Below the pieces are notes generated by a model. The model was not told where the DNA came from, ran no database searches, and saw only the letters and a list, made by a program, of their open reading frames with translations. A stretch of 64,000 nt of DNA from Parcubacteria group bacterium GW2011_GWC2_42_12 (GTDB taxonomy: Bacteria > Patescibacteriota > Patescibacteriia > Patescibacteriales > GWC2-42-12). Numbering within the stretch: position 1 is the first letter of the stretch; the number at the start of each line of letters is the position of its first letter. Positions 21,510 through 38,539 of the stretch are shown one piece after another. The stretch spans positions 14,284-78,283 of the forward strand of contig LCCP01000002.1 in the NCBI GenBank assembly GCA_000997945.1. The letters are read 5' to 3'. The position numbers and the translations under genes were made by a program.

Positions 21510-22826
21510 TTATTTTCCAACGAATGTAGCTTGGTCACTTTTTTTGCCGGTCTGTTTAATTATTTTTTTAATTATTTCTTTGGTAATATCGCGTCCGCCT
21601 AGGCCGACGATGAAACTGGAAATATTGGCATTGGTCTGGCCTTGAGCCACGGCTTTAATGTCCGAAGCTAACGGACCAATATGGCCTAGAGAAATGGATT
21701 TATCTATAACCGCGACATTTTTAGCTGGTTTGATAATTTTTAGAATTTGTTCGGCCGGGAAGGGGCGGAAACATTTGATTTTTAGGATGCCAACGCCACC
21801 GATCCTTCTATTAGAGAACAAACCCCCCTCGCTCCCCTTGTCAGGGGGGAAGTTGCTAACCGTGTCTTTAATAGTGCCGATGACCGAACCCATAGCCACT
21901 AGTATAGTGTCGGGATTTTTTGGACCGGTATATTCCAGCCAGCCGTTATCAACTGTTATCAAATCTTTACTAGAATTTTTAATTTTGTCCCCCTTCGCTA
22001 ACGCTGCGGAGGATAAATAATTTTTAATTTTTAATGAAGGAAAAATTTTATGAAAAGCTTTATATTCCTGGTCAATAGTTTTTAGGCTGGCGATTAAGTC
22101 TTCATGCAATTCTTGCCTGATTTCCATATAATGGGCGGGCGCGGCTAAGGGGCCCATGGTGATGGGATTAGCCGGATCAAGGAAGGTTCCGGGCGCAGGC
22201 GCGTAATCTGGCAGGTATTTTTTTATCTGTTCGGCCGAGGGGATAATCACCGGTTCATACGAATGGGTCATAATATAACCGTCAACATTCACCATGACCG
22301 GCAGCTTAAGTCGCTCGGCAATTTTAAAGGCCATGATATGCTGGCTAACCGCTTCCTGGTGGTTTTCCGCGAACAAGAGAATCCAGCCGGCGTCTCTTAC
22401 TGCCATCACATCTTGCTGATCATTCCAAATATTGATTGGAGCTGACACGGCGCGGTTAGCGCAAGTTATGACCACGGGTAGACGCAGGCCGGCGATATTA
22501 AAAATTACCTCAATCATAAGCAAGAGCCCTTGCGAGCTGGTGGCGCTATAGGTTCGCACGCCAGTGGCGCTGGCGCCCAAAATAATAGAAGCGGCCGCAA
22601 ATTCTGATTCAGCCCGAACATATTCGTAGTCGGCCTGACCCCGCCCACCTCGCGAGCGAAACGTCGCGGGCGCGGCGTCGGCTTTAAATTGGGCCAGGTC
22701 TTCAACAATATGCGTTTGCGGCGTAATCGGGTAAGCGGAAATAACCGCCGGGGCGATATTTTTTACGGTTAGAGCGATGGCCCGGGAACCTTCTAACATC
22801 TGTTGTTTATTATTTTTGTTATTCAT
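21510..22826 (-). CDS. porA: 2-oxoacid (pyruvate):ferredoxin oxidoreductase alpha subunit
   Basis: 438 aa; typical PorA/KorA N-terminal and central regions; carries an in-frame GC-hairpin element at 21823..21849. Confidence 0.88.
   Translation of the reverse strand: MNNKNNKQQMLEGSRAIALTVKNIAPAVISAYPITPQTHIVEDLAQFKADAAPATFRSRGGRGQADYEYVRAESEFAAASIILGASATGVRTYSATSSQGLLLMIEVIFNIAGLRLPVVITCANRAVSAPINIWNDQQDVMAVRDAGWILLFAENHQEAVSQHIMAFKIAERLKLPVMVNVDGYIMTHSYEPVIIPSAEQIKKYLPDYAPAPGTFLDPANPITMGPLAAPAHYMEIRQELHEDLIASLKTIDQEYKAFHKIFPSLKIKNYLSSAALAKGDKIKNSSKDLITVDNGWLEYTGPKNPDTILVAMGSVIGTIKDTVSNFPPDKGSEGGLFSNRRIGGVGILKIKCFRPFPAEQILKIIKPAKNVAVIDKSISLGHIGPLASDIKAVAQGQTNANISSFIVGLGGRDITKEIIKKIIKQTGKKSDQATFVGK
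21823..21849. repeat. GC-rich short palindromic element, in-frame within porA
   Basis: CCCCCCTCGCTCCCCTTGTCAGGGGGG, encoding ...FPPDKGSEGG... in PorA. Confidence 0.6.
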
Positions 22827-22836
22827 AAATATGATA

Positions 22837-23028
22837 TGTCATTGCGAGCGACCGAAGGGAGCGAAGTCATCGCTACGCGAGATCTGGCGTAGCCATGACA
22901 ATCTCACGAACAATGTGTATAGAAAATTATATTAAATGGTATGTTTAGTGGCTATTCGTCATGTCTGAGATTGCCTGCCTACCGGTAGGCAGGCTTCGTC
23001 GCTCGAGTACGAGCTCCTCGCAATGACA
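22837..23028. repeat. MITE-like nested-palindromic repeat, subtype 2, copy F (porD-porA spacer)
   Basis: TGTCATTGCGAGCGACCGAAGGGAGCGAAG...CTACGCGAGATCTGGCGTAGCCATGACAATCTCACGAAC...GAGATTGCCTGCCTACCGGTAGGCAGGCTTCGTCGCTCGAGTACGAGCTCCTCGCAATGACA. Confidence 0.75.
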
Positions 23029-23036
23029 GTAAGAAT

Positions 23037-23309
23037 TCACTTCTGATCTAATTCCATCACAATCGCCTTGAACGGGCAGACCTCGGCGCATAAACTGCAG
23101 CCCTTGCAGTAGTTAAAGTCGCAGTCATAAGGCAATTTGCCCAAGGAATTTATTTTGTCAATTTGCTTAATTATGCCTTCCGGGCAGACGCGCGGGCAGA
23201 TGCCGCAAGCCGTGCATTTATCATATAAAAATTTTGGCTTTAAAGTGCGCCAGGAGCCGGTTTTATTATTCATCGTCGTTTTAGGTTTTACGGTAATTGG
23301 TATTTTCAT
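23037..23309 (-). CDS. porD: 2-oxoacid:ferredoxin oxidoreductase delta subunit (2x[4Fe-4S] ferredoxin)
   Basis: Two CxxCxxCxxxCP motifs (CTACGICPRVCP, CKGCSLCAEVCP). Confidence 0.8.
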   Translation of the reverse strand: MKIPITVKPKTTMNNKTGSWRTLKPKFLYDKCTACGICPRVCPEGIIKQIDKINSLGKLPYDCDFNYCKGCSLCAEVCPFKAIVMELDQK

Positions 23310-23323
23310 AACTTATGCTTTTT

Positions 23324-23366
23324 TGTCATTGCGAGCTCCGACCAAGGCGTCGGAGCTCGCAATGAC
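23324..23366. repeat. minimal hairpin form of the TGTCATTGCGAG repeat (copy G, porG-porD spacer)
   Basis: TGTCATTGCGAGCTCCGAC-caaggc-GTCGGAGCTCGCAATGAC, perfect 19-bp stem. Confidence 0.7.
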
Positions 23367-23376
23367 GGTAAAAAAT

Positions 23377-23916
23377 TCAAATTTTATATGCTCGCTCTAT
23401 GGCCCTAATGTTTTTAGCTATTAATTCATTATGTCCGGCAAATTTTTCTTCAATCGCTTCGGTCAGTGATTTCAAGCTGATTAGTCCGGTAGCTTTGGCG
23501 AAACTGCCAAGGATAACCGTATTAACAATATTCTTGCCGATAATTTCCAAAGCGATCTTAGTCGCGTCAATGGTATGGATATTATTTAGCGGGAAATTTA
23601 TTTTTAGTTCAGCCTTGGTTTTGGCCGTGTTAATTATAATTATGGTTTTTTTATCTACGCCCTTAGCAACTTCCGGAGTTTCTAGCAAAGTGGGATCCTG
23701 AATAATTAAAATATCCGGCCGATAAATCTGCTGCCTCGTTATGATTGGTTGATCATCAATTCTGGCAAATGATTCTACCGGAGCGCCAGTCCTTTCCGCG
23801 CCGAAAGAAGGAAAGGCCTGGGCCTCTCTCCCGCCCTTAAAAGCGGCGGTGGCAATTAATTCCGCGGCGGTTACCACGCCTTGGCCGCCGCGGCCGTGAA
23901 TTCGTATTTCAATCAT
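23377..23916 (-). CDS. porG: 2-oxoacid:ferredoxin oxidoreductase gamma subunit
   Basis: MIEIRIHGRGGQGVVTAAELIATAAF N-terminal signature of PorG. Confidence 0.85.
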   Translation of the reverse strand: MIEIRIHGRGGQGVVTAAELIATAAFKGGREAQAFPSFGAERTGAPVESFARIDDQPIITRQQIYRPDILIIQDPTLLETPEVAKGVDKKTIIIINTAKTKAELKINFPLNNIHTIDATKIALEIIGKNIVNTVILGSFAKATGLISLKSLTEAIEEKFAGHNELIAKNIRAIERAYKI

Positions 23917-23974
23917 AAAAAATGTAAAATTAAAATCTCAAAATGTAAAATGACAATGCAAAATTATCTATTAT

Positions 23975-24156
23975 TGTCATTGCGAGCCGCCTTTGTACTC
24001 AAGGCGGCGAAGCAATCTCTGGTTAGAAGCGCTTTACCAGTCTAAGGATAAATCTCTCTGAGCAAAATTAATTTTGTTGATTAAGGCTATTTTGTTTTTG
24101 TTTATTTTTTCTTTCTTACCAGAGATTGCTTCGTCGCTGTCGCTCCTCGCAACGAC
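23975..24156. repeat. MITE-like nested-palindromic repeat, subtype 1, copy H, flanked upstream by AAAATGTAAAAT motifs
   Basis: TGTCATTGCGAGCCGCC...GCGAAGCAATCTCTGGTTAGAAG...TTTCTTACCAGAGATTGCTTCGTCGCTGTCGCTCCTCGCAACGAC. Confidence 0.75.
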
Positions 24157-24165
24157 CATCGTCGT

Positions 24166-24864
24166 TTATTTTCTAAGCTGTTCTATTATTTGTATAAAGA
24201 CATCAAGCGGAACATCGCCGGCTAGCTTATAGCCGTTAATAAAATAGGTCGGCGTGCCGGCGATGCCGAAATTTTGCCCGTCGGACAGATCCTTCTGAAT
24301 TTGGGGAAGATATTTTTTTTGGTTCAGACAATTTTTAAACTTAACTTGGTCGGCGCCGATTTGGTTGGCTAAAGCATTGAGCTCATCGGCCTGGACGGCC
24401 TTATTATCCGTCTGACCCACGCCTTGGTTTTGAAATAATTTGTCATGCATGGGCCAGAATAAGCCCTGCTCGCCCGCGCAGCGTCCGGCTAAAGCCAGAG
24501 TAGCTGAATAATCGGAAACTACCGGGTAATCTCGCCAGATGAATTTTATATCATTTTTGTATTTTAAGCTAATCTCCCTAACGGTAGGAAACGATTGCAA
24601 GCAAACCGGACAAGCAAAGTCGCCGAATTCCACGATGGTGATTTTGGCGTTAGTTGAACCAAGCCAATAACTATTGCTGGCCGCGGCCGGATATTGCTCA
24701 CCAGTTAATTCCCGTCCGGCCTGGCTAAGTTTAAGTTTAGCATTTCTTATTTCACCCAGAAAGTAAAAAGCGCTCGCCGCCAGGAAAAATAAAACTATGG
24801 CCAGGATTATGATTATTAAGACGCCCCACCATTTCCTATACCAAATTTTATTTGAATATTCCAT
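24166..24864 (-). CDS. membrane-anchored DsbA-like thiol:disulfide oxidoreductase
   Basis: N-terminal TM, thioredoxin fold with CPVC active site (FGDFACPVCLQ). Confidence 0.7.
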   Translation of the reverse strand: MEYSNKIWYRKWWGVLIIIILAIVLFFLAASAFYFLGEIRNAKLKLSQAGRELTGEQYPAAASNSYWLGSTNAKITIVEFGDFACPVCLQSFPTVREISLKYKNDIKFIWRDYPVVSDYSATLALAGRCAGEQGLFWPMHDKLFQNQGVGQTDNKAVQADELNALANQIGADQVKFKNCLNQKKYLPQIQKDLSDGQNFGIAGTPTYFINGYKLAGDVPLDVFIQIIEQLRK

Positions 24865-25085
24865 TGATATTTTCTTAAATTAGTTTTACTATATGAGAGT
24901 AAGCTAAATTCTTGGATATGAATATTATAACATTTATTTTATGAATAAACAAAATTTGGTTGATCTGGATCTGGAAATAGAAAAACGGCTTAAAAAGCGG
25001 GAAAAAAGAAAAAGACAACGGATGAAAGTTAGCGGCGCTATGGTTAAAGAATTGCAAAAGATGATAATGAGATAATTTTATTGTC

Positions 25086-25247
25086 TCGCTACGCGAGATC
25101 TGGCGTAGCCATGACAAAATAATCACAAAGTTGTATAATTAAATCACGCCTCAAGGCGCAAGCTAATTATTTAATTAATTTTTTCCGCTTAAAGAGCGGA
25201 TCCGCCTCGGGCGGAAATCAAACCTACCTGCCGGCAGGCAGGCCAGA
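25086..25247. repeat. degenerate/partial repeat copy I (CTACGCGAGATCTGGCGTAGCCATGACAA module followed by short GC hairpins)
   Basis: Shares the CTACGCGAGATCTGGCGTAGCCATGACAA module with subtype-2 copies, followed by hairpins CCGCTTAAAGAGCGG, CCGCCTCGGGCGG and CCTGCCGGCAGG. Confidence 0.5.
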
Positions 25248-25260
25248 AATCAAAAAAAGT

Positions 25261-25905
25261 ATGTTCACACCAAAGAAAATGTTCTTAACCAAAGGAGTCG
25301 GCGTTCATAAAGACCGGCTGGCGTCTTTTGAGCTGGCTCTTAGGGACGCTGGCATTGAGAAACATAATTTAGTGACCGTTTCCAGCATCATGCCGCCTAA
25401 TTGCCATATTACTTCTAAGGAAAAAGGCGAAAAAATGCTCTATCCCGGACAAATTGTTTTTTGCGTTCTGGCCAGAAGCGAGACTAACGAGCCCAACCGG
25501 TTAATTTCCGCCGCCATCGGCTTAGCCAGGCCGAGCGATCATAATAATTATGGCTATTTGTCCGAGCATCATGCTTTCGGCGAGGTGGCGAAAAAAAGCG
25601 GCGAGTACGCCGAGGACCTGGCCGCCACTATGTTGGCCACGACCTTAGGCATTGAATTTGATTCAGCCAAGGCCTGGGAAGAAAGAGAGCAGATTTATAA
25701 AGCTAGCGGCAACATTATTAATACTTGCAATATTTGCCAATCGGCCGAAGGCAATAAAGACGGCCTGTGGACTTCGGTAATCGCGGTGGCGGTTTTTTGC
25801 GAGTACAGCATGCATAAAGACGTGATCGCGCCGATTATAAAAGACGAGATGCAAAATAAGGATAGCGGCGACGATAAATCTGATGGTCCGGCCGGCAAAA
25901 TATAA
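25261..25905 (+). CDS. pdaD: pyruvoyl-dependent arginine decarboxylase
   Basis: [39 protein letters not shown] matches the PdaD signature (ser-ser self-cleavage site region). Confidence 0.75.
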
Positions 25906-25947
25906 TAATTTATTAGCGTGATTAGAACGGGCTTAGTTCTTTAGGAG

Positions 25948-26106
25948 CCTATCTTAAAAATAATCTCTGGTTCATTTTCGGTCTTTTTTGGCTGCAAAGT
26001 TAAAAAATTTCGTCGGTATAATTTATTATGCCTCCTCAATTTTTTAACTTTTCGCTCAAAAAATCTTCGAAAATGACCTAGAGCTATTTTTAAGATAGAC
26101 TCTAGG
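25948..26106. repeat. 15-bp inverted repeat pair (CCTATCTTAAAAATA / TATTTTTAAGATAG) spanning ~160 bp
   Basis: Arms at 25948..25962 and 26085..26099; interior contains AATCTCTGGTT, the motif of the subtype-1 inner module. Confidence 0.35.
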
Positions 26107-26130
26107 ATTAAGTCCGTTTTAAAAAGATAT

Positions 26131-26574: not shown

Positions 26575-26576
26575 TT

Positions 26577-26606
26577 TTCCCCCTGACAAGGGGGAGCTAG
26601 AGGGGG
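26577..26606. repeat. GC-rich short palindromic element (intergenic copy)
   Basis: CCCCCTGACAAGGGGGAG-CTAGAGGGGG. Confidence 0.5.
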
Positions 26607-26610
26607 TTTT

Positions 26611-27018
26611 GTGAAAAGAAGCAAAAATTTAAAATATTTGCCTTATAATTCTGAACTAAAAGAAAAAGCTCGAGATTTGAGAAAAAATATGACTATTGCA
26701 GAAAAGAAACTTTGGCGAGAGTTTTTAAAAAGTCATAAATATAAGTTTACTCGCCAGAAGCCGATTGATAATTATATTGTTGATTTCTATTGCTCAGAAT
26801 TAGGTTTAATTGTTGAAGTTGATGGTACGACTCATTTGGATGATAAAGATATTTTATATGACAAGAAACGGACCATTAATTTAGCAAAATATGGATTAAA
26901 GATTTTACGTTTTTGGAATGATGATATATTAAGCGGGATGTATGTTGTGGGAGAAATAATTAATTGCGAAATAAATAAGATAACCCACCCCAACCCTCCC
27001 TTGTCAGGGAGGGGGTAA
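26611..27018 (+). CDS. DUF559 (Vsr-like endonuclease fold) protein with GC-hairpin-encoded C-terminus
   Basis: GTG start; LW.EFLK...F.RQKPIDNYIVDFYC....LIVEVDG..H....D..R...L...G..ILRFWN pattern of DUF559. The last 11 residues (THPNPPLSGRG) are encoded by the element CCCTCCCTTGTCAGGGAGGGGG. Confidence 0.6.
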   Translation: MKRSKNLKYLPYNSELKEKARDLRKNMTIAEKKLWREFLKSHKYKFTRQKPIDNYIVDFYCSELGLIVEVDGTTHLDDKDILYDKKRTINLAKYGLKILRFWNDDILSGMYVVGEIINCEINKITHPNPPLSGRG

Positions 27019-27059
27019 TAGTTGCCTTTTCGCCAATTTTAGGATAAAATAGGTTTATT

Positions 27060-30000
27060 ATGGAGAAGTATAATCATCAGAAAATCGAAGCCAAATGGCA
27101 GAAAAAGTGGAATAAAGAAAAGCTTTATAAGACTTCGGGTAATAAAGATAAGCCAAAATATTATGTTCTGGATATGTTTCCTTATCCTTCCGGATCAGGC
27201 CTGCATGTCGGCCACCCCAAGGGCTATATTGCCACGGATATCTTCGCGCGCGCCAAGATGATGCAAGGGTATAATGTGCTCCACCCTATGGGCTGGGACG
27301 CTTTCGGCTTGCCCACGGAAAATTATGCCATGCAAAATAAAATTCATCCGTGCGCGGCCACGGAAAAAAATATTGCCACTTTTAAAAGGCAATTAGGCCT
27401 CTTGGGTTTTACTTACGATTGGGATAGAGAGATAAATACTACTGATCCGGAGTATTATAAATGGACGCAATGGACATTTTTGAAAATGTTTGAACGCGGC
27501 CTAGCTTACGAATCTTATGAGCCAATTAACTGGTGCCCGAAATGCCAGACCGGTTTGTCTAACGAAGATCTGGAAGATGGCAAGTGCGAGCGCTGCGATT
27601 CGGTCGTGGAAAAGAAGCCCATGCGCCAATGGCTGCTGAAAATTACCGATTACGCCGACCGCCTGCTTAGTGACCTTGAGAAATTGCCGGCCTGGGAAGA
27701 GTCCATTAAAGAAATGCAGAGAAATTGGATCGGGCGGAAAGAAGGCATAAACATAGATTATAAAATTGAAGGGCTGGACAGTAAATTATCGGTTTTTACC
27801 ACTCGGCCGGACACTAATTTCGGCGCGACTTTTATCGTGGCGGCGCCGGACAGCGTTTTTACGGCCGAAAAAATCGGCAGTTTTCCCAACCAGGCGGAAG
27901 TTAAGAAATATGTAGAGGCGGCCAGGCATAAAACCGAATTGGAGCGCATTAGCGAAGGTCGGAAAAAAACCGGCGTTTTCACCGGCCTTAACGCCATTAA
28001 TAATCTGACCGGCCGGAAAATGCCGATTTATATCAGCGATTTTATTCTAGCTTCGGTCGGCACTGGCGTGGTCGTCGGCGTGCCCGGCCATGACTTAAGG
28101 GATTTTGAATTCGCCCAGGCCATGGGGCTGGAAATTATTAGGGTTGTCGTCGGAGCGGACGGCGATACTTCGCCCATAACTAAAAAAGAGCAGGTTCAGG
28201 AAGAAGCCGGCACCATGATAAACAGCGGTTTGCTTGATGGCATGAATATTCATGACGCCACCAGAAAAATAATGGACCATATTGAAACCAAGGACTGGGG
28301 CAAGAAAATCGTAAGTTATAAAATAAAAGACTGGGTGTTTAGTCGGCAAAGATATTGGGGCGAACCGATCCCGATTATCCATTGCCAGGCCTGTAAAAAT
28401 AAGAAATACAATTTTATTTTTATTCATGGTTATGGCAGCAGTGGCAAAGAAGGCTGGAGGCCATGGCTTAAAAGAGAATTAGAAGGCCGAGGACATAAGG
28501 CATATTCGCCCGATTTGCCCAACAGCTTAAAACCTAATGTTGATGAACAGGCTGATTTTATAATTAAGAATGTTGAACTTGGGGAAGATACAATTTTAAT
28601 AGGCGGCAGTTTAGGGGGAGTGGTTATTATGAGGATTTTAGAGAAAATTAAAATTAAGATTGCAAAAGCCGTATTTATTGATTCAGTATTTAAACCAGAG
28701 TTTGCCGATCATGATAGGCCGGATGTGGCCGCGGCATGTGATTGGAAATTTAATTTTAAAAAAATTAGTCAAGCGAGCAGTAGTTTTGTAGTATTGGCGG
28801 ATAGTGATTTTCCAGTGATAAAGAAAGAACATTCCGAAGAGTTAGCGAAAAAATTTAATACTAGCGTTACTTATGTTAAACCAAACGGCCAGCATTTCTC
28901 TAAATCCGCCACTGAACCGGAGATTTTGAAGATTTTTGGAAATTTAGGAATAGTTATCGTGCCGTACGAAGATTTACCCCTGAAACTGCCGGAAGTGAAA
29001 AATTACCAGCCCACTGGCACGGGCGAGTCGCCGCTGGCGAATATTAAGGAGTGGGTTAATACCAAGTGTCCGCAGTGCGGCGGGAGGGCTTTGCGCGAGA
29101 CCAATACTATGCCGCAATGGGCTGGGTCAAGTTGGTATTATTTAAGATATATTGATCCAAAAAATAAGACAGCGTTGGTTGATAAAGATAAAGAAAAATA
29201 TTGGTCGCCGGTGGATTTTTATGTCGGCGGCGCCGAACATGCTACGCGGCATTTAATTTACGCGCGTTTCTGGCATAAGTTTCTATTTGACATTGGCGCG
29301 GTAAATTATGATGAACCGTTTACGCGGCTGCAGCATGTGGGTTTAATACTGGCCGAGGACGGGCGCAAGATGAGCAAGCGCTGGAACAATGTTATTAACC
29401 CAGATGAAATCGTGGAAAAATACGGTGCTGACGCCATGCGTATTTATGAAATGTTCATGGGGCCGTTTAGCCAACCTTGCGCTTGGAGTACAAAGAGTTT
29501 AATCGGTGGCAGGAGATTTCTAGAAAAGATTTGGCATTTTTATCACCAAGTAAAGCTATTTGATTGCGGCGGCGTCGGTTGCGATAAAGCGCCGACAGGC
29601 CTGCCGCAGCTAATGCATAAGACCATAAAGAAAGTTACCGAGGATATTGAAAATTTTCATTATAATACGGCAATCAGCCAAATGATGATTTTCATGAATT
29701 TTGCCAGCCAGCTTGACTCTGTGCCGCGCGGGGCTTTAGAAAATTTTCTAAAGATCTTAGCGCCGTTCGCGCCGCATCTTACGGAAGAACTTTGGTCAGG
29801 GCTGGGGCATCCCTCCGCGAAGCTCGGGACAAGTAAGCAAAGCATCTTTAAAGAAGAATGGCCAAAATATAATCCGGAATTAGTTAAAGATGAAACCATA
29901 AATTTGGTGATTCAAATAAATGGCAAGGTGCGTGATACCGTTGAAGTTTTTGCTGATATTAGCGAAAAAGAAGCGAGAGAGTTTGCTCTGGATAGTGAGA

Positions 30001-30080
30001 AAATAAAGAAGTGGTTGGATGGGAAAGAAATAAAGAAAGTAATTTTCGTTAAGGGAAAGTTAGTTAATGTAGTTATCTAA
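27060..30080 (+). CDS. leuS: leucine--tRNA ligase with an inserted alpha/beta-hydrolase (RBBP9/YdeN-like) domain
   Basis: HVGH (HIGH) motif, CP1 editing domain, KMSKR (KMSKS). About 190 extra residues (nt ~28410..28960) sit between the zinc-knuckle halves HCQAC and CPQCGG: IFIHGYGSSGKEGWRPWLKREL...ILIGGSLGG (GxSxG). Confidence 0.93.
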   Translation: MEKYNHQKIEAKWQKKWNKEKLYKTSGNKDKPKYYVLDMFPYPSGSGLHVGHPKGYIATDIFARAKMMQGYNVLHPMGWDAFGLPTENYAMQNKIHPCAATEKNIATFKRQLGLLGFTYDWDREINTTDPEYYKWTQWTFLKMFERGLAYESYEPINWCPKCQTGLSNEDLEDGKCERCDSVVEKKPMRQWLLKITDYADRLLSDLEKLPAWEESIKEMQRNWIGRKEGINIDYKIEGLDSKLSVFTTRPDTNFGATFIVAAPDSVFTAEKIGSFPNQAEVKKYVEAARHKTELERISEGRKKTGVFTGLNAINNLTGRKMPIYISDFILASVGTGVVVGVPGHDLRDFEFAQAMGLEIIRVVVGADGDTSPITKKEQVQEEAGTMINSGLLDGMNIHDATRKIMDHIETKDWGKKIVSYKIKDWVFSRQRYWGEPIPIIHCQACKNKKYNFIFIHGYGSSGKEGWRPWLKRELEGRGHKAYSPDLPNSLKPNVDEQADFIIKNVELGEDTILIGGSLGGVVIMRILEKIKIKIAKAVFIDSVFKPEFADHDRPDVAAACDWKFNFKKISQASSSFVVLADSDFPVIKKEHSEELAKKFNTSVTYVKPNGQHFSKSATEPEILKIFGNLGIVIVPYEDLPLKLPEVKNYQPTGTGESPLANIKEWVNTKCPQCGGRALRETNTMPQWAGSSWYYLRYIDPKNKTALVDKDKEKYWSPVDFYVGGAEHATRHLIYARFWHKFLFDIGAVNYDEPFTRLQHVGLILAEDGRKMSKRWNNVINPDEIVEKYGADAMRIYEMFMGPFSQPCAWSTKSLIGGRRFLEKIWHFYHQVKLFDCGGVGCDKAPTGLPQLMHKTIKKVTEDIENFHYNTAISQMMIFMNFASQLDSVPRGALENFLKILAPFAPHLTEELWSGLGHPSAKLGTSKQSIFKEEWPKYNPELVKDETINLVIQINGKVRDTVEVFADISEKEAREFALDSEKIKKWLDGKEIKKVIFVKGKLVNVVI

Positions 30081-30179
30081 AAAAGGATTGAATCGCAGCG
30101 CTCGCCACAAAAAATTCAGTGAATAGCGCAATCGTGTTTGATAAAAAGGCTTTTAGTTATATTGTTCGCCACAAAAAAA

Positions 30180-30270: not shown

Positions 30271-30349
30271 ATTTTTCTATACTCACAATATAACTAAAAG
30301 CTTTTTTATTTTCTAATTTTTTTAGGCTCGCAATGTAATTAAGGGTTTT

Positions 30350-31336: not shown

Positions 31337-31395
31337 TTAGCCCAATGAATTTCTAACGGGGTGAATATTTTATAAAGAAATGGTATAATATTACT

Positions 31396-31911: not shown

Positions 31912-31913
31912 TT

Positions 31914-32819
31914 ATGGATTTATTGGAACAAACAAAAAAGTTATGTAAACTCTATCATATAATTCCTGCCCGCTCTAAGGGGCAGAATTTTTTAATTAAG
32001 GAAGAGATTTATGATGAAATGGTGGCCGCGGCAGATTTAAAGCCGGACGAGACGGTTTTGGAGGTCGGTTCGGGTTTGGGGTTTTTAACGGCTAAGTTGG
32101 CGGCTTGCGCCGGGCGAGTAATCGCCGTGGAGCTGGACGATAAATTGGCGGGGGTTTTAAAAACCGGGTTGATAGCGAAGAAAGTTAAAAATGTGGAGGT
32201 GGTGAATGAAAATGTGCTTGATATAAAAATACAACCCCCCTTATTCCCCCCTTATCAGGGGGGGCACTATAAAATTGTTGCCAATTTGCCGTACAACATA
32301 ACCTCTATATTTTTAAGAAAATTTCTGGAGGCGGAGACTAAACCGGAGTTAATGGCGCTAATGCTGCAAAAGGAAGTGGCGGAAAGAATTACGGCTTCAC
32401 CCCGTGAAATCCCGACAATAAGTCGGGGCGCAAAGCGCATTTCACGGGGTAAACCCGGTAAAATGAGTTTATTGGCCGTATCGGTGCAATTTTATGCTAA
32501 CGCGGAGATAATAAAATTCGTGTCTAAAGAATTTTTTTGGCCCAAGCCGGAAGTTGATTCGGCGATAGTGAGAATAAAGTTAAATCCACCTTCATCCCCC
32601 TTTGTTAAAGGGGGCATTAAGGAGAAAGAATTTTTTCAATTGGTAAAATTCGGTTTTAGCGCCAAGAGAAAAATGTTAAAAAATAATTTAGCCGCCGGTT
32701 TTAAAATAGATCAAGGCGAGGCGGGGAGTAGAATAATTAAGGCCGGATTTAACGGTAAAATTAGAGCGCAAGAATTATCGGTTGATGACTGGCTTAAGTT
32801 ATTTACGGTTTTTCAGTAG
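31914..32819 (+). CDS. rsmA: 16S rRNA (adenine1518/1519-N6)-dimethyltransferase
   Basis: GQNFLIKEEI, VLEVGSGLGFLT (SAM motif I), NLPYNITS; carries three in-frame GC palindromic elements. Confidence 0.85.
   Translation: MDLLEQTKKLCKLYHIIPARSKGQNFLIKEEIYDEMVAAADLKPDETVLEVGSGLGFLTAKLAACAGRVIAVELDDKLAGVLKTGLIAKKVKNVEVVNENVLDIKIQPPLFPPYQGGHYKIVANLPYNITSIFLRKFLEAETKPELMALMLQKEVAERITASPREIPTISRGAKRISRGKPGKMSLLAVSVQFYANAEIIKFVSKEFFWPKPEVDSAIVRIKLNPPSSPFVKGGIKEKEFFQLVKFGFSAKRKMLKNNLAAGFKIDQGEAGSRIIKAGFNGKIRAQELSVDDWLKLFTVFQ
32234..32264. repeat. GC-rich short palindromic element, in-frame within rsmA (copy 1)
   Basis: CCCCCCCTTATTCCCCCCTTATCAGGGGGGG, encoding QPPLFPPYQGGH. Confidence 0.6.
32400..32449. 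repeat. 50-bp cloverleaf-like GC palindrome, in-frame within rsmA (copy 2)
   Basis: CCCCGTGAAAT-CCCGACaataaGTCGGG-GCGCaaaGCGC-ATTTCACGGGG, encoding SPREIPTISRGAKRISRG; ~16 aa extra relative to E. coli KsgA (recalled alignment). Confidence 0.6.
32596..32614. repeat. GC-rich short palindromic element, in-frame within rsmA (copy 3)
   Basis: CCCCCTTTGTTAAAGGGGG, encoding SPFVKGG. Confidence 0.55.
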
Positions 32820-32888
32820 ATGTGGTATAATAAAAAGGCAGTTTACTTATTTTTTCCAACAAAAAGGCATTAGTTTGGTTGTTAAATT

Positions 32889-34481
32889 ATGAATGTACAT
32901 TTGATTATACACAACCTCACCTCCATTGTCTCTTCAATAATTTTACTGGGCCTGGCTCTCTTTACTTTTTTGAACGGTAAAAGGAAAATAGCAAATATTT
33001 CGTTTGCCCTATTAATGCTGTCGGCAGCCGTTTTTACCATATCCCATGTTATCGGAGCTAATCTTGCCGATCCCAACATATCCAGGGCGGTATTTATGTT
33101 TAATCTGGCAAATTTTTTTATTGCCTGTTTTAATGTTCATGCGGTTATATCTCTAATCAACAAGAATCAAGAAAAGAAATGGATTATTCGGCTATTTTAC
33201 TCCGCCACCATATTGATAACGGCCTTCTTTTTAATTTTTCCTGATTTACTTTTGTTGCCGTCAGCGCCGAAAATGTATTTTTTAAATTACTATGAACCGG
33301 GGATTTTAAACTGGATGCGCCTGGCATTTCTTTATGTAATTTCCATACCTTACATGATTTACTTGCTGCTGGCGGCGTATAAAAAAAGTAATTTAGCCCT
33401 TGAAAAAAACCAATATAAGTATTTTATAGTTACTATTATTATTGGCTACCTACCGGCGTTTTTTCCCAATTTTCTTGTTTATGACATACAGATAGACCCC
33501 GCCCTGGGCATGATCTTCCCTTTGCTTTTTATATTTCCCTTTATGTATGGAGCGGTAAAATATGAATTATTTAATGTTAAGATAATCGCCAAACAAGCCT
33601 TTTTTTACTCTTTAGGAATTGCCGTGGTCGGAGGAATCATCACCCTATTGAATTATTCAAATAATTTAATAATAAACACTTATCCGGATTATCCGCCTTG
33701 GATTACCGCGATCATTTCATCTATCCTCGCCGTGACGATCAGCGTAATAGTCTGGAGATATTTACGAGAAGGAGATTTGCTAAAATACGAATTTATCACC
33801 ACCGTCACCCATAAATTTCGTACCCCGCTTACCGCTATAAGATGGGCGGCCGAAGATTTAGCAGAATCGGCCCTTTCCCCAAGCGACCAAGAACAAATTG
33901 AATATATCAAGAAAGCAAATTCTAAACTAGTTGAATTAACTAACTTATTAGTAGCGACATCAGAAAAAAAAATGGGTTATTATCAGTATAAGTTTTCCTC
34001 AAATGATCTGGCAACGGCGGTCAACGATATAATAATGTCATTTGACAGCCAGATAAAGAAAAAACAATTAACTATTGAAAAAAAAATTCAGTCCGGGATG
34101 TTAGCTTCGTCTGATTTGGCAAAAATAAAATTTGTGATCCAAACCATCATTGAAAACGCGATTAATTACACGGATAAAAAAGGAACAATTTCTATTTCCA
34201 TTGAAAAAATCAATAATGATATAGTATTTTCTGTTCGTGACATGGGAATTGGTTTTTCTCAAGAAGAAACTAAACATCTGTTCTCAAAATTTTTTAGAGC
34301 GCCGAGGGCCAGAACGATTGATACGGAGGGCCTGGGCATAGGACTTTATGTAGCAAAAAAAATTATTTTAAATCATAAGGGCAAAATCTGGGCCGAGTCG
34401 GCCGGCAGTAATAAAGGCAGCACTTTTAGTTTTTCTTTACCGGCGGTGAAAATAAGCCAGAGTGCCAAAGCTATTAAATAG
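32889..34481 (+). CDS. sensor histidine kinase with N-terminal 7TM sensor domain
   Basis: About seven TM helices; H-box TVTHKFRTPLTAIRWAAEDL; HATPase_c N/G1/G2 boxes (DMGIGF, GLGIGLYVAKKII). Confidence 0.8.
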   Translation: MNVHLIIHNLTSIVSSIILLGLALFTFLNGKRKIANISFALLMLSAAVFTISHVIGANLADPNISRAVFMFNLANFFIACFNVHAVISLINKNQEKKWIIRLFYSATILITAFFLIFPDLLLLPSAPKMYFLNYYEPGILNWMRLAFLYVISIPYMIYLLLAAYKKSNLALEKNQYKYFIVTIIIGYLPAFFPNFLVYDIQIDPALGMIFPLLFIFPFMYGAVKYELFNVKIIAKQAFFYSLGIAVVGGIITLLNYSNNLIINTYPDYPPWITAIISSILAVTISVIVWRYLREGDLLKYEFITTVTHKFRTPLTAIRWAAEDLAESALSPSDQEQIEYIKKANSKLVELTNLLVATSEKKMGYYQYKFSSNDLATAVNDIIMSFDSQIKKKQLTIEKKIQSGMLASSDLAKIKFVIQTIIENAINYTDKKGTISISIEKINNDIVFSVRDMGIGFSQEETKHLFSKFFRAPRARTIDTEGLGIGLYVAKKIILNHKGKIWAESAGSNKGSTFSFSLPAVKISQSAKAIK

Positions 34482-34558
34482 AAATATTTAACCATAATTA
34501 TAAATTTAGGCATTAAATAATTATTAACTAAAAACATATAGCTAACAACAAAATAAAA

Positions 34559-34924
34559 ATTTTATTAGTAGAAGATGATTCTTTTTTAAGAGATATCTGC
34601 ATCAAGAAATTAGCCAAAGCAGGCTTTTTGGTTTTTGAAACCGCCGATGGCGACCAAGTCTTAAAAAATTTAGAAAAGATAGAACCGGATATAATATTGT
34701 TGGACATACTTTTGCCAACGGTTAACGGTTTTGAAGTTTTAGAAAAAATTCGATCTGACAAAAACAGCAAAATAAGACAGACGCCGGTTATCGTGTTGTC
34801 TAATTTGGGGCAAGACGAGGATATAAAAAAAGCCATTAGTTTGGGAGCTAATGACTATTTAATCAAAGCGCATTTTACGATTGAGGAAATAGTCGGAAAA
34901 ATTAAAAACCGATTGGGATTATAA
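34559..34924 (+). CDS. single-domain response regulator (CheY-like receiver); start codon uncertain
   Basis: KILLVEDDSF...D(54)ILLP...SNLGQDEDIKKAISLGANDYLIK. There is no ATG/GTG between the upstream stop (34529) and the conserved KILLVEDD; the start may be ATT/ATA near 34553..34559 (the track begins at the internal TTG 34628). Confidence 0.65.
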   Translation: MLLVEDDSFLRDICIKKLAKAGFLVFETADGDQVLKNLEKIEPDIILLDILLPTVNGFEVLEKIRSDKNSKIRQTPVIVLSNLGQDEDIKKAISLGANDYLIKAHFTIEEIVGKIKNRLGL

Positions 34925-34994
34925 AAATATTCACCTCGTTAAATATTAGGTAATCACAAAAAACCAAGGCCAAGCATCTGACGAGGTAATAAAT

Positions 34995-35390
34995 ATGAAT
35001 ATGCCAGAATTACAAAGGACATCTAACGGAGTGAAAGAAATAAAAAATATTAATAAAAAGTCGCTGGCGAGAATAACCGCCTTAATTTACGGTTTAGTTG
35101 GATTTTTTATTGCTTTGGCCGTGGCCATCTCAACTATGGCCAATATTATGATGCAAAAGGATTTTCAGGGTTCGGTTATTTTAGTGACTTTATTTAATGT
35201 CGGGGCTGGTTTATTGATCGGGGTTTTAACCGCTTTGCTGACCGCTGCCTTGGGCTGGATAATGGGTTATCTAGAGGCAATAATATATAATTGGTTTGCC
35301 GGTAAAGTGGGCGGAGTGAAAGTGGAGTTCCTCGAGGCCGGTGAAATAGCAAAAGAGGAAACTAAAATTCAACATTATTTTAAATTTTAA
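34995..35390 (+). CDS. hypothetical membrane protein
   Basis: 131 aa, 2-3 TM helices. Confidence 0.3.
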   Translation: MNMPELQRTSNGVKEIKNINKKSLARITALIYGLVGFFIALAVAISTMANIMMQKDFQGSVILVTLFNVGAGLLIGVLTALLTAALGWIMGYLEAIIYNWFAGKVGGVKVEFLEAGEIAKEETKIQHYFKF

Positions 35391-35399
35391 ATTAAATAT

Positions 35400-35699
35400 A
35401 TGCCGCCAATCAATGAAAGCAAGGATCTATTATACATGGCCATTTCGCTGGCCGTTTTACTGTTAACGGTTTTTTCCTGCTGGGCGATTTATTATTTAGC
35501 CAGAATTTTGCAGCAGTCTTTTCAAATCGTAAAAGAAATGCGCGATCGATTGCATAAAGTTGATACCGTGATTGACGCGGTTAAGGAAAAAATAGAGCAT
35601 AGCGCGTCCTATCTCTTGCTTATCGGCGAGGGCATAAAGACTTTGGTCGGGATTATGAAGAGTAGGGGAGAGAAGAAGAGGAAAGCTAAGAAAGAGTAA
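35400..35699 (+). CDS. DUF948-like membrane-anchored coiled-coil protein
   Basis: Single N-terminal TM then coiled coil, ~100 aa, Lys-rich tail. Confidence 0.3.
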   Translation: MPPINESKDLLYMAISLAVLLLTVFSCWAIYYLARILQQSFQIVKEMRDRLHKVDTVIDAVKEKIEHSASYLLLIGEGIKTLVGIMKSRGEKKRKAKKE

Positions 35700-35728
35700 T
35701 AGAATCTATATTTAAATTTTTAATCACT

Positions 35729-36217
35729 ATGAATAATGATAAAAAAAAGAGCAGCTTTGTTTGGTTTATTATTATGCTTGTAATATTAGAAATTTTTGTG
35801 CAGTTTATAAAGTTAATTGGAGGATTTTTTGGAGCATTAGCTCTCTCTGCTAGTTTAGCGCGAGGTACGAATTTGAATATGGCAGTTACGACCACAGGAT
35901 CATCGTTAATGTTAATAATATTGTTATTGAGCATGATTGAGTTAATTGTCGCCATAGTCTATTTAGTAAAACTATTCAAATTAAGCAATGGTTTATTATT
36001 GTGGACAAATATTATTTTTGGTTTCACTCTTTTTACTTATTTATTGCTTAATTTAATAGAAATCATAGGTTCTGGTTTTTATGGTTTTCTCGTTGTAAGC
36101 GGAACAGGTTTTAACTTTAATGATATTATTTATATTTTCCTGCTAATCATAATTTGGTTATGGTTCTTCCATCATCTTAAGAAGAGGTATTTTTTTAGTT
36201 CCAATATTCAATCATAG
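35729..36217 (+). CDS. hypothetical polytopic membrane protein
   Basis: 162 aa, 4-5 TM helices. Confidence 0.3.
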   Translation: MNNDKKKSSFVWFIIMLVILEIFVQFIKLIGGFFGALALSASLARGTNLNMAVTTTGSSLMLIILLLSMIELIVAIVYLVKLFKLSNGLLLWTNIIFGFTLFTYLLLNLIEIIGSGFYGFLVVSGTGFNFNDIIYIFLLIIIWLWFFHHLKKRYFFSSNIQS

Positions 36218-36289
36218 AATTTCTAAAACGATAAACGGCGTCTTTGTGACAGGACGCCGTTTTTAAGTACATTACATTTTTTGCTTCGC

Positions 36290-38539
36290 TTATTTTATAT
36301 ACCCGCATTCTTTATTAGAGCATTTAACTTCGCCTTTTTTCGCGTCTTCGATCAATAAGCTATCGCAATCCGGGCATTTTTCTCCGGTGGGTTTGCCCCA
36401 GAAAGCGGTTTTACAGTCCGGATATTGGTTGCAGGCGTAGAAGATGCCGCGGCGGCTGCGTTTTTGCACGATTTCGCCTTTCTGACAAACCGGGCAAGTA
36501 AGGCCGGTCGATTGACCTACGCCGTTAAGCCCTTTAATGTTTTTGCATTTAGGGTAAGCGGAGCAGGCCAGAAAGGGGCCGAACTTACCGATTTTTACGA
36601 TCATGGGCGCGCCGCATTTACCGCAAATCTCGGCTTTATATTTATCTTTAAGCCCAGCAATTTCTTTATTGTCTGGCTGGCCGTTTTTATCTCGATCAGT
36701 TCCGGGCAGGGACTTGATATTTTTACATTCGGGAAAAGCGCTGCAAGCCAAAAATTTACCGAAGCGGCCGGTTTTGATAATCATGGGCGCGCCGCATTTA
36801 TCGCAGATCTCGCTTGATTTTTCTTCCGGCACAATATCATTTTTATTAATGGATTCATATTTACTTTCCAGGTTGGCGTGGAATGGCTCATAAAATTCTT
36901 TAACGATTGGCTGCCACTTGACCGAACCCTCGGCGATAGCGTCCAGATCGTTTTCCATTTTAGCGGTGAATTCGTAATCCACGATTTTCGGGAAGTGCTC
37001 AACCAACAAGTCAATCACCACAAAAGCGATATCGGTCGGAGCCAGCCGTTTGTTTTCATCTCGTTCGACGTAATTTCGGTCAATAATCGTGTTGATGGTC
37101 GGCGCGTAAGTAGATGGGCGTCCGATGCCGTGCTTTTCCAGCTCTTTAACTAAGCCGGCGTCACTAAATCTCGCCGGCGGCTTGGTAAAATGCTGTTCGG
37201 GTTTTATTGCCAAAAGTTCCAGCTCTTCTTTTATTTTCATTTCCGGCAAGACGATTTCCTGGCTGGCCTCCGGGTAAATTTTCAGATAACCGTCAAATTC
37301 TATAATTTGGCCGTTGGCGCGGAATTGGTAATTAATTCCCCTAACCCCTTTTATCAAGGGGGAAGTGGCGACAGCGTCAATATCAACCACGGTGGCGTCT
37401 ATTATGGCCTCGGTCATTTGTGAGCCAATGGCTCTCTGCCAAATTAATTTATACAGTTTATTTTGGTTGGAGTTTAAATCGCCAGCAATGGAGTCTGGAG
37501 TGCGCGAGACTTCGCTTGGTCTGATAGCTTCATGCGCTTCTTGCGCGCCTTTAGCTTTAGTTTTAAAGCGGCGCGTTAAACTGTATTTCTCACCCAAATT
37601 AGTTTTTAAATATTCGGCCGCCTCGTTTAAAAATTTATCAGCCAGGTTGAGCGAGTCGGTTCTCATGTAAGTAATAAAGCCCATTTCGTAAAGCTGCTGC
37701 GCCACCAGCATAGTTTGTTTGGCCGAGAAGCCGAGCCAGCGGTTGGCGGTTTGCTGTAAACTGGAAGTGGTGAAGGGGTTGGGCGGCTGTTTTTTGGTTT
37801 GTTTTTTTTCTAAATCGGCTACCAAATATTTCGCGCCCTTAAGTTCAGTTAAAATTTTCTCCGCCTGCTCTTGGTTTTTAATTTCTAACTTAGCAATGGT
37901 CTGGCCATTAATTTTATTCAGTCGGGCTAAAAAGGGTAGCTTCTGGCCGTTTTGCAGATTGGCCTGAACCGACCAATACTCTTCTATATTAAATTTTTTA
38001 ATTTCTCGTTCTCGTTCAATAATTAAGCGCACCGCTACCGACTGCACGCGGCCGGCCGATAAGCCCTTAGCTACTTTTTTCCAGAGGAAAGGGGAGAGTT
38101 CGTAGCCAACCAAGCGGTCAAGAATTCTTCTGGCTTGCTGGGCGTCAACCAATTTCATGTCAATTTTTCTTGGCTGTTCTAGGGCTTCGGCAATCGCCGT
38201 TTTGGTTATTTCATGGAAAACAATGCGATTGGTATCTTTGGTCTTAACTTTTAGCGCTTCGGCCAGATGCCAGGCGATAGCTTCACCCTCTCGGTCTTGG
38301 TCGGTCGCCAGAATTATCTGGTCTGATTTTTTAGCCAAGTCCTGGAGTTTTTTTAAATTAACTTTAGCTTTTTTCGGCACCACATATTTCGGCTCAAAAT
38401 CATGTTTAATATCAATGCCCATTTTACTGACCGGCAGGTCGCGGACATGCCCGAAAGATGATTCAACTATAAAATCAGAACCTAAGAACTTAGTAATAGT
38501 TTTGGCTTTGGTTGGAGATTCGACGATAACGAGTTTCAT
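36290..38539 (-). CDS. topA: DNA topoisomerase I with three C-terminal C4 zinc ribbons
   Basis: Toprim N-terminus (KLVIVESPTKAKTI), catalytic Tyr region, 3x CxxC...CxxC ribbons; an in-frame GC hairpin element at 37337..37363 encodes SPLIKGVRG. Confidence 0.95.
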   Translation of the reverse strand: MKLVIVESPTKAKTITKFLGSDFIVESSFGHVRDLPVSKMGIDIKHDFEPKYVVPKKAKVNLKKLQDLAKKSDQIILATDQDREGEAIAWHLAEALKVKTKDTNRIVFHEITKTAIAEALEQPRKIDMKLVDAQQARRILDRLVGYELSPFLWKKVAKGLSAGRVQSVAVRLIIEREREIKKFNIEEYWSVQANLQNGQKLPFLARLNKINGQTIAKLEIKNQEQAEKILTELKGAKYLVADLEKKQTKKQPPNPFTTSSLQQTANRWLGFSAKQTMLVAQQLYEMGFITYMRTDSLNLADKFLNEAAEYLKTNLGEKYSLTRRFKTKAKGAQEAHEAIRPSEVSRTPDSIAGDLNSNQNKLYKLIWQRAIGSQMTEAIIDATVVDIDAVATSPLIKGVRGINYQFRANGQIIEFDGYLKIYPEASQEIVLPEMKIKEELELLAIKPEQHFTKPPARFSDAGLVKELEKHGIGRPSTYAPTINTIIDRNYVERDENKRLAPTDIAFVVIDLLVEHFPKIVDYEFTAKMENDLDAIAEGSVKWQPIVKEFYEPFHANLESKYESINKNDIVPEEKSSEICDKCGAPMIIKTGRFGKFLACSAFPECKNIKSLPGTDRDKNGQPDNKEIAGLKDKYKAEICGKCGAPMIVKIGKFGPFLACSAYPKCKNIKGLNGVGQSTGLTCPVCQKGEIVQKRSRRGIFYACNQYPDCKTAFWGKPTGEKCPDCDSLLIEDAKKGEVKCSNKECGYIK
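37337..37363. repeat. GC-rich short palindromic element, in-frame within topA
   Basis: TCCCCTAACCCCTTTTATCAAGGGGGA. Confidence 0.55.

Follow-up and report, generated by a model that had tools for sequence, protein, structure and literature searches.

Why do short GC-rich palindromes lie inside conserved housekeeping genes of an ultra-small groundwater bacterium from the candidate phyla radiation (CPR)? The question is raised by a 64,000-nt stretch of contig LCCP01000002.1 from Parcubacteria group bacterium GW2011_GWC2_42_12 (G+C ~42%), which is referred to here as the window. A preliminary description of this DNA reported one family of GC-rich hairpins, including a cloverleaf, in intergenic DNA and in frame within porA, rsmA, topA and a DUF559 gene, and likened it to the palindromic elements of Rickettsia. 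Our analysis indicates that the short, structured palindromic repeats of the window make up at least two families behaving as mobile DNA, a reading to which we assign a probability of about 0.7. The repeats are dispersed, vary in presence between relatives and stand in frame within loops, and the ends of small endonuclease cassettes match the solo units. A Rickettsia-like reading of in-frame mobile hairpins is supported.

The four gene identities were upheld by Pfam, which assigned PorA (positions 21510-22826, minus strand; POR_N and PFOR_II), the DUF559 protein (26611-27018, plus strand; score 8e-30; 135 aa), RsmA (31914-32819) and TopA (36290-38539, minus strand), and the peptides quoted for the in-gene copies were all correct on re-translation. 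The closest named homologues of the window proteins are from Patescibacteria, frequently 'Candidatus Falkowbacteria'. The syntenic relative used for comparison is GCA_030650415.1, and the loci fetched from relatives are labelled L001, L006 and so on. The frequency of the motif departs from the base-composition expectation: CCCCYTTRTYARGGGG with at most one mismatch has 7 matches in the window against 0.02 expected, and none of 100 shuffles reached 7. CCCC-N3-12-GGGG is present at 7 window loci, whereas the mirror pattern GGGG-N-CCCC has 0 matches against ~5.5 simulated. A first-order Markov control of CCCC..GGGG is uninformative for overlapping counts (12 observed against 5.5 simulated); the valid chance controls are the specific CCCCYTTRTYARGGGG test and the missing mirror pattern.

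Architecture and dispersal of the repeats

The hairpins and the cloverleaf, first taken together, had to be split into two families, since a common family is ruled out by structure and termini. Family 1 is an oriented unit of ~30 nt in which a C run and a G run enclose a short A/T loop and a spacer of 2-7 nt leads to a further G run. Its pattern is C5, loop, G5, NTAG, G5, ATT, where the spacer N is mainly T or C and the loop is of the TGACAA, TTGATAAA, TTATCA or TTTGTTAAA type. The metagenome consensus, T-N-C5-TTGATAAA-G5-N-TAG-G5-ATT, is a 30-nt core with sharp element edges. Family 2 is a three-way junction of 54 or 60 nt, both multiples of three, made up of an outer stem of 11-12 bp (CACCCCGTKAAAT / ATTTMACGGGGT) and a pair of inner hairpins. 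The 13 copies that were collected all adopt this junction when folded (z = -5 to -10). Over 12 copies, pairing in the outer stem reaches 97.9%, with one pair fully compensated (UA in 7, GC in 5), and the inner hairpins vary in sequence between copies with their pairing kept. An Rfam search of the window at gathering thresholds gave 0 matches to known RNA families.

The family-1 25-mer CCCCCTTGATAAARGGGGNTAGGGG was found at more than 119 metagenome loci at least, with 103 distinct contexts among the matches listed, to which the counts in this paragraph refer. Whether coding or not, the copies are immediately flanked by A/T-rich sequence. Open frames of at least 150 codons enclose 49 of the 103 contexts, and the copies within open reading frames (ORFs) are read as PPNPLYQGG (38 copies), xPLIKGxRGI (13) or PLxPFIKG (9), so that all 60 of 60 are in stop-free phases, of six possible. 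The host genes include those for TsaD, PPDK, UvrC, enolase (at two loci), PorA, YchF, a Mur ligase, MnmA, GlmS, TrmD (at three loci, with two copies in one of the genes), glycosyltransferases and giant surface proteins, and the copies in enolase and TrmD were confirmed as insertions by comparison with PDB structures. The same DNA unit is thus found between and within genes, in both orientations and in different frames, and encodes different peptides in many unrelated housekeeping genes, which indicates that the DNA, not the peptide, is conserved.

Family 2 is present in frame in RpoC, RsmA, a DinB-like polymerase, LysRS, PyrG and LepA, with most in-gene copies in a single phase (HPVKSR...FNGV). 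A 17-mer genome scan gave 111 matches, mostly by chance in non-CPR genomes; only complete-junction matches were kept, which place the junction element at 11 CPR loci. In a separate scan of viral contigs, the family-1 and family-2 units had one match each, and the idea of phage-borne units was rejected on this count. As a further observation, a CPR enolase (L175) has two repeat-filled insertions, at aa 139-182 and about 206-231. The insertion in the linker of its N and C domains (~40 aa) contains PPNPLYQGG, and the second, an 18-aa gap against PDB 4mks, PLTPFSKGGKNPPNPPLSKGG, resembles tandem units.

An origin without mobile DNA was considered in the light of these data, namely that Pro/Gly loops evolve by slippage and selection, with palindromes as a by-product of CCC/GGG codons. 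Pro/Gly-rich loops are indeed common, and the affected loops are length-variable anyway. However, one DNA unit is read in three phases and both orientations into unrelated peptides, the non-coding copies share the same sharp edges and the same composition of their flanks, CCCC-N-GGGG is enriched and GGGG-N-CCCC absent, and near-identical copies lie in unrelated genes of one genome. Such an origin is hardly credible and is already contradicted by the results.

Copies inside housekeeping genes

For RsmA, TopA and PorA, 115-120 close orthologues each were compared (114 for PorA occupancy). The in-gene copies appear as an extra stretch at a loop where most relatives are empty or carry a different repeat. 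Palindrome-free orthologues do not have segments of equal length in TopA, at RsmA site 2 or at PorA site C, where they are shorter. When indels of at least 3 aa were listed without bias for 22 orthologous pairs between the window and the syntenic relative, palindromic units were among them in both genomes. The GC-rich palindromic indels include rsmA QPPLFPPYQG and porA AAPATFRSRGGR on the window side, and porA LIKGV (TCCCCCTTGATAAAGGGGGTTAGGGGG) and topA SPYERSGVAR on the side of the relative. As previously noted for the copies inside ORFs, the frame is unbroken: every in-gene copy is in frame and stop-free.

RsmA contains three elements, which were compared across 120 orthologues at 59-80% identity. 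Site 1 (QPPLFPPYQGG; 32235-32264, minus strand) is an in-frame family-1-type unit, C6-TTATT-C6-TTATCA-G7 on the plus strand, in a loop that ranges from 7 to 39 residues. It adds 10 aa relative to the syntenic relative and is an extra segment against close orthologues, but B. subtilis KsgA is of equal length there. Site 2 (SPREIPTISRGAKRISRG; 32397-32450, plus strand) is a family-2 junction of 54 nt, in frame, with a minimum free energy (MFE) of -34 and z = -7.6. In agreement with the ~16 residues attributed to this cloverleaf at first sight, the alignment with B. subtilis KsgA has a gap of 16 aa. The site is empty in 115 of the 120 orthologues, while 3 have the junction element and 2 another hairpin of 66 nt. 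Comparison with L004 gives a clean 54-nt indel, in which the empty allele joins GCT to AAG and the filled allele is exactly 54 bases longer. Site 3 (PPSSPFVKGG; 32586-32614, minus strand) is an in-frame family-1 unit in a loop of 8 to 39 residues. At sites 1 and 3 the orthologues differ and have peptides of several distinct repeat families. In an AlphaFold2 model of RsmA with a mean predicted local distance difference test score (pLDDT) of 85.7, all three element sites are coil of lowered confidence (below 50 for residues 113-115 and 169-177, ~75 for 224-234). The 66-nt element, seen in L005 10001-10954 (rsmA) and in P0107, is a perfect hairpin, CCCCGCACCTTTGGGGCAG...CTGCCCCAAAGGTGCGGGG, at the exact codon position of the junction element of the window; it may reflect targeted insertion, selection or unit replacement.

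The single cloverleaf copy reported for rsmA was confirmed, and a second in-frame copy that had been overlooked lies in rpoC (HPVKSRKAGILPKAELFNGV; 14766-14825, plus strand; 60 nt; MFE -32.8, z = -7.5). It gives ~15 residues more than are present in the RpoC of L003 and sits inside a lineage-specific insertion in the trigger-loop region. With regard to the whole protein (encoded at 11518-15519), this insertion of ~110 residues (about aa 1030-1140) splits the trigger-loop region into two halves, has no counterpart in PDB 8i23_D and recalls by its position the SI3 insertion of E. coli.

In porA, the reported element is present at what is designated site C (FPPDKGSEGG; 21823-21849, minus strand; coding strand CCCCCCTGACAAGGGGAGCGAGGGGGG), and two further sites, A and B, had been missed. 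Site C is an in-frame family-1 unit that forms a 12-aa insertion relative to PDB 9bt4_B and closely resembles the intergenic copy at 26579-26606. Among 115 orthologues this site is a hot spot. The family-1 subtype there differs between the window, L006 and L005, and some orthologues have 4-6 tandem copies of ITPLIKGDRG. Site B (aa 268-282, KNYLSSAALAKGDKI; 21981-22025, minus strand) is a low-occupancy segment with an imperfect GC hairpin, where occupancy is 2-19% among the 114 orthologues and diverse repeat-type peptides are found. Site A (AAPATFRSRGGR; 22641-22676, minus strand) is a precise, imperfect palindrome of 36 nt (79% GC, MFE -25.6) with no family assigned. It has an occupancy of 1-2%, is unique to the window genome, and appears as a clean indel against L006 and L005 and as an 11-residue gap against PDB 9bt4. 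Another class of selfish insertion was observed in the PorA orthologues P0307, P0325, P0335, P0338, P0339 and P0349 (710-715 aa), in which an intein with a LAGLIDADG endonuclease (PF14890, PF14528, PF05203) roughly doubles the length.

The topA element (SPLIKGVRGI; 37334-37363, minus strand) is an in-frame family-1 unit whose coding strand, TCCCCCTTGATAAAAGGGGTTAGGGGAATT, is 2 substitutions from the metagenome consensus. It corresponds to a 12-aa gap in the comparison with E. coli TopA (4rul), and the usual orthologue length is 741 aa against 749 in the window. Most of the 120 orthologues have a basal 5-residue turn (DAKNT) before YQFR at this loop, where the window has DAVATSPLIKGVRGIN. About one quarter have additional residues, with the P-L-x-K-G type, sometimes as tandem copies, in at least 9. 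Among orthologues whose loop is empty, the closest (L002, 89% identical) is free of the palindrome at the DNA level. The topA of the syntenic relative (L001) has an orthologous family-1 unit, and in that genome, GCA_030650415.1, the TopA copy matches the PorA copy with 28/30 identity. In addition, the relative's gene (L001 10001-12286) contains in frame, as SPYERSGVAR, a module (CTACGAGAGATCTGGCGTAG) of the intergenic composite repeat described below. The module is absent from the window TopA. A third repeat family thus reaches into coding sequence as well.

The proposal that the elements occupy surface loops was borne out as regards loops. The RsmA sites are coil in the model, and the TopA insertion point is a gap against E. 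coli TopA and the orthologues, read as a beta-hairpin tip; the placement is by loop, not by exposure. In PyrG, LepA and enolase, the units fall in inter-domain linkers. Because CCN encodes Pro and GGN encodes Gly, a C-run/G-run hairpin gives a turn-forming peptide in any open phase, which plausibly explains why hairpin inserts are tolerated. The solo termini are 30, 54 or 60 nt, all multiples of three, and about half of the phases in which they can be read are free of stops. The predicted peptides across the flank-insert junctions are ...ATSPLIKGVRGINYQFR, ...ITASPREIPTISR and ...EVHPVKSR.

The same features bear on whether the inserts reach the mature proteins or are removed from the mRNA or skipped, as in byp elements or the T4 gene 60 gap. 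The hairpins are strong (z = -5 to -10), and their 27-60 nt are similar to the size of the byp elements of Magnusiomyces mitochondria; moreover, support for translation of the inserts is indirect. Against this, every in-gene copy is in frame and stop-free, the 60 of 60 copies in long ORFs (among the matches listed) use stop-free phases only, and the unit lengths are multiples of three. Since excised or bypassed segments would need no such constraints on frame, stop codons and length, translation is favoured, and loss of the inserts from the proteins is highly improbable.

Endonuclease cassettes bounded by the repeats

The DUF559 gene lies between two inverted family-1 units in a cassette of 443 nt (26579-27021, plus strand). 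The left terminus (26579-26606, plus strand; CCCCCTGACAAGGGGGAGCTAGAGGGGG) occupies the LigD_N-DUF559 spacer, and the right terminus, in the opposite orientation (26984-27015, minus strand), reads CCCACCCCAACCCTCCCTTGTCAGGGAGGGGG on the plus strand. In the syntenic relative L006 the flanks adjoin, with 1 nt between them, and the block limits are the outer ends of the units. The encoded protein is a relative of PDB 3hrl, an 'endonuclease-like protein'. Its last ~10 codons (HPNPPLSGRG) and stop codon are inside the right terminus. The element assigned to the DUF559 C-terminus is therefore real as sequence and not as an insertion: the tail is read-through into a downstream element, since the stop codon of the orthologue in L183 sits just before the same element. 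Upstream of DUF559, L183 also contains one more copy of the unit in direct orientation; a solo unit in its leuS leader (5' region) is absent from the window and L006. On either side of a second DUF559 gene (52% identical; L124, L210 and L177) lie inverted units of the TTGATAAA type, which indicates that the terminal subtype changes with the gene; in both DUF559 genes the final codons extend into the right terminus. An identical DUF559 protein was found in Rifle groundwater assemblies and in GCA_001780215.1; the Rifle projects in which the window genome is represented are PRJNA268031 and PRJNA292723.

A second type of cassette is represented in the window by its empty site (26120-26121), where the flanks are contiguous and L006 carries a block of 288 nt, TACCCCGTGAAAT...GIY-YIG ORF...ATTTCACGGGGTG, with the family-2 outer stem as its ends. 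A GIY-YIG gene in L042, 69% identical to that of L006, has ends with a compensated change. The cassette boundaries were taken from flank matching, which replaced a MAFFT alignment of the GIY-YIG site with a misaligned left flank. Solo units share their ends with the cassettes, at 3 independent loci for DUF559 and 2 for GIY-YIG. As a separate observation, a tandem array with a ~117-nt period, in which two family-1-type units alternate (…CCCCCCAGCCCCCTCTTTAACAAGAGGGGGAG…, …CCCCCTTGAYAAAGGGGGTAGGGGGATT…), surrounds a DUF559 pseudogene containing stop codons at about 180-1700 of L160 (Ga0247610_10000042).

Because complete copies of each family form inverted cassette ends, the solo units would most likely be non-autonomous relatives of the endonuclease cassettes, by analogy with repetitive extragenic palindromic (REP) sequences and their REP-associated tyrosine transposases (RAYTs), and we infer that the DUF559 and GIY-YIG endonucleases mobilise them. 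A tentative extension is that CPR bacteria harbour two minimal mobile elements, a DUF559-only cassette of ~440 nt and a GIY-YIG-only cassette of ~290 nt, in which the enzyme would recognise structured palindromic termini. Family 1 bounds a DUF559 (Vsr-like fold) gene and family 2 a small GIY-YIG gene, and under the proposed mechanism the units would insert at A/T-rich sites without target duplication. The in-gene copies that persist would be those that preserve the frame (3n length), offer a stop-free phase and lie in a tolerant surface loop or domain linker, where they would be translated as Pro/Gly-rich loop extensions. Repeated hits and unit-by-unit replacement would then turn loops into length-hypervariable hot spots.

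Several points weigh against this interpretation. DUF559 and small GIY-YIG proteins are not, to our knowledge, known transposases, and so do not account for the step that carries units to non-homologous sites. The link to DUF559 comprises 3 independent loci and that to GIY-YIG 2, and the DUF559 loci other than that of the window were fetched for containing an element, so that the sample is biased. The identical DUF559 protein is at one locus only across 18 contigs, which gives no hint of recent multi-copy spread. There is no target-site duplication in the 103 contexts (k = 2-5, all offsets; only weak excess over permutation), nor at the clean filled and empty sites of rsmA, porA and the cassettes. 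Pfam scans covering ~30 ORFs within the window's first 38.5 kb found no RAYT, IS200, Y1 or other transposase. The palindrome at porA site A is a singleton with no second copy in 1.7 Mb of fetched DNA, the differing units at one loop across lineages could result from selection alone, targeting or gene conversion, and the translation of the inserts is deduced from frame and stop codons.

Some of these points would also be expected if the endonuclease genes were not mobilisers and instead were selfish homing-type genes that landed at, or gathered, pre-existing palindromic units. The solo units would then have spread otherwise, through an enzyme of HUH/RAYT type that escaped notice, through template switching at hairpins or through gene conversion. 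GIY-YIG and PD-(D/E)XK are classic homing-endonuclease folds, and the extra direct unit upstream of the L183 DUF559 gene, the single locus of the identical protein and the lack of target-site duplication, which fits single-strand 'peel and paste' enzymes, can all be read in this way. We consider it unlikely, however, because the presence/absence boundaries of both cassettes coincide exactly with the outer ends of the termini, which argues that gene and termini moved as one unit. Furthermore, gene and terminal subtype vary together in two cases of DUF559 and two of GIY-YIG, and the ~30 scanned ORFs include no RAYT/IS200 gene.

The intergenic copies were described previously at three places, of which 26577-26606 and 61722-61822 were confirmed, whereas 1935-1990 is only degenerate or composite. 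A family-1 unit whose two G runs are separated by a nested hairpin of 23 nt (61723-61770, plus strand) and an inverted unit (61794-61822, minus strand) form a gene-less doublet of ~100 nt. The copy at 1935-1990 (minus strand; AATCTCCCTAACCCTCCC...CTTTATCAGAGGGG) resembles family 1 by eye only. Copies right at gene ends, such as 26579-26606 and 61723-61822, would suit selected host cis-elements, either RNA hairpins for termination, mRNA stability or ribosome pausing, or DNA uptake signals that accumulate as naturally competent CPR cells take up and recombine DNA in a biased manner. Exact 25-mers at more than 100 loci at least in many samples, and dprA, which we take from syntenic annotation to adjoin topA in the window, could be seen in the same light; the uptake sequences of Haemophilus and Neisseria also occur within genes in tolerated frames. 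Nevertheless, the in-gene copies add length, while uptake sequences arise mostly by substitution, and several unrelated families behave alike. The density of the units in the window is low (about 9 per 64 kb), they bound cassettes of variable presence between relatives, and Rfam recognised no known RNA family. A role as host cis-elements is accordingly improbable.

Other insertions and repeats were observed in the window. A composite palindromic unit of 90-190 nt with inverted ends (TTGTCATTGCGAGC... and ...GCTCCTCGCAATGACAA) and inner modules including GCTACGCGAGATCTGGCGTAGC, GCCTGCCTACCGGTAGGCAGGC and GAGATTGCTTCGTCGC is present in many intergenic spacers and is far more abundant in the window than the family-1/family-2 units. 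Its left ends are at 11307, 17650, 18023, 21333, 22826, 23964, 38536, 41661, 43309, 46555, 48085 and 48497, and its right ends at 11491, 15691, 17739, 18198, 21485, 23012, 38628, 41846, 43479, 46671, 48212, 48672, 53683 and 63393. LeuRS (27060-30080) has an inserted alpha/beta-hydrolase domain at aa 453-610 (Ser_hydrolase / Abhydrolase_6). The enzyme of L003 has a NUDIX domain, L001 encodes 930 aa, and L005 encodes 871 aa without an inserted domain, so these whole-domain insertions are lineage-specific. A search of the fetched DNA for the leuS HPSAKLGT segment found no further copies. A 658-aa ORF with a TTG start (2730-4706) has RuvA domains only at aa 467-656, its N-terminal 466 residues being without a Pfam match, which suggests a possibly miscalled start, a fusion or a separate gene.

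Relation to known repeats and significance

The Rickettsia palindromic elements (RPEs; Ogata et al. 2000, 2002) are described in the summaries of PMC10969869 and PMC6649704. Both they, as summarised there, and the CPR units are dispersed palindromes located in frame in many unrelated, often essential genes, are fold-compatible inserts with non-coding copies as well, and belong to reduced-genome, host-dependent bacteria; the CPR units are 30-60 nt, compared with about 100-150 bp in Rickettsia. The phylum is unrelated and the sequences are probably unrelated too, and length and host set the units apart from RPE-1 to RPE-10. Unlike the Rickettsia elements, the CPR units have at least two structural types, hairpin and three-way junction, have hit the same loops repeatedly in different lineages, and are linked to DUF559/GIY-YIG cassettes; we know of no mobilising gene for the former. 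The analogy first drawn with Rickettsia thus holds functionally, whereas membership in the RPE families does not (3-5x shorter, another phylum, endonuclease-cassette link).

REP/REPIN sequences resemble family 1 as imperfect palindromes of 20-40 nt in many copies without target-site duplication, and REP/RAYT systems resemble the cassettes in having a single-copy gene between inverted cognate repeats whose subtype co-varies with the gene. However, REPs are extragenic by definition, whereas 49 of the 103 family-1 contexts among the matches listed are inside ORFs. A conserved GTAG or CGTC head is the hallmark of REPs (PMC3733652); family 1 has no consistent head of this kind and a spacer NTAG. 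The partners of REPs are HUH Y1 (RAYT) transposases, while the cassette genes encode DUF559 and GIY-YIG endonucleases.

Transposable elements of the miniature inverted-repeat type (MITEs) such as ERIC, Correia and the Coxiella QMITE have occasional intragenic copies (PMC5896051). MITEs are, like the CPR units, short, with inverted ends and some in-frame fusions, and are non-autonomous, as the CPR units probably are, and MITE-like terminal inverted repeats are represented by the 11-12-bp outer stem of family 2 and by the inverted family-1 units at the cassette and the 61723-61822 doublet. Unlike MITEs, the CPR units have no target-site duplication and no parental DDE-transposase insertion sequence and are much shorter, and in-frame copies are the rule rather than the exception. 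Free-standing homing endonuclease genes are, like the cassettes, tiny, endonuclease-only and variably present at syntenic intergenic sites; in contrast to classical homing, the structured inverted termini of the cassettes are also abundant as solo copies at non-homologous sites.

Strong hairpins inside coding sequence are likewise known as mitochondrial palindromes and GC clusters (Nematomorpha, PMC6649704; yeast GC clusters; byp). The Nematomorpha repeats encode conserved residues and are not insertions (PMC6649704), whereas the CPR units are insertions. In byp elements, which the ribosome skips, the frame need not be kept; the in-gene CPR copies are all in frame and stop-free. Uptake signal sequences have a single consensus at about 1 per kb and arise by substitution, in contrast to the several families, low density and added length of the CPR units. 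Searches across 8 million papers gave nothing on palindromes in coding sequence, on REPs or on MITEs from CPR bacteria, and nothing connecting DUF559 with repeats. In-frame palindromes as such are known from Rickettsia; the link of palindromic units to endonuclease cassettes is new here, and the endonuclease-cassette reading could be categorically new.

In-frame selfish palindromes have been treated as near-unique to Rickettsia (PMC6649704, PMC10969869), and the same behaviour in CPR bacteria suggests that it recurs in reduced-genome, host-dependent lineages. The CPR units reach RNA polymerase, topoisomerase, tRNA synthetases and glycolytic enzymes. Repeat insertion accounts for much of the difference in length between CPR orthologues, so that repeat-filled loops are non-homologous insertions to be masked in alignments, and many repeat-derived 'hypothetical protein' peptides (PLIKGVRG, PPNPLYQGG, HPVKSR...FNGV) are explained as well. 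The cassette link suggests what DUF559 and the tiny GIY-YIG proteins may do and provides a tractable case of mobile DNA creating new protein segments. If the two minimal cassettes are indeed mobile elements, DUF559 would acquire a function, their solo termini would be adapted to survive in coding sequence through 3n length and Pro/Gly-rich turns, and these termini would be a main source of length-hypervariable loops in CPR housekeeping proteins.

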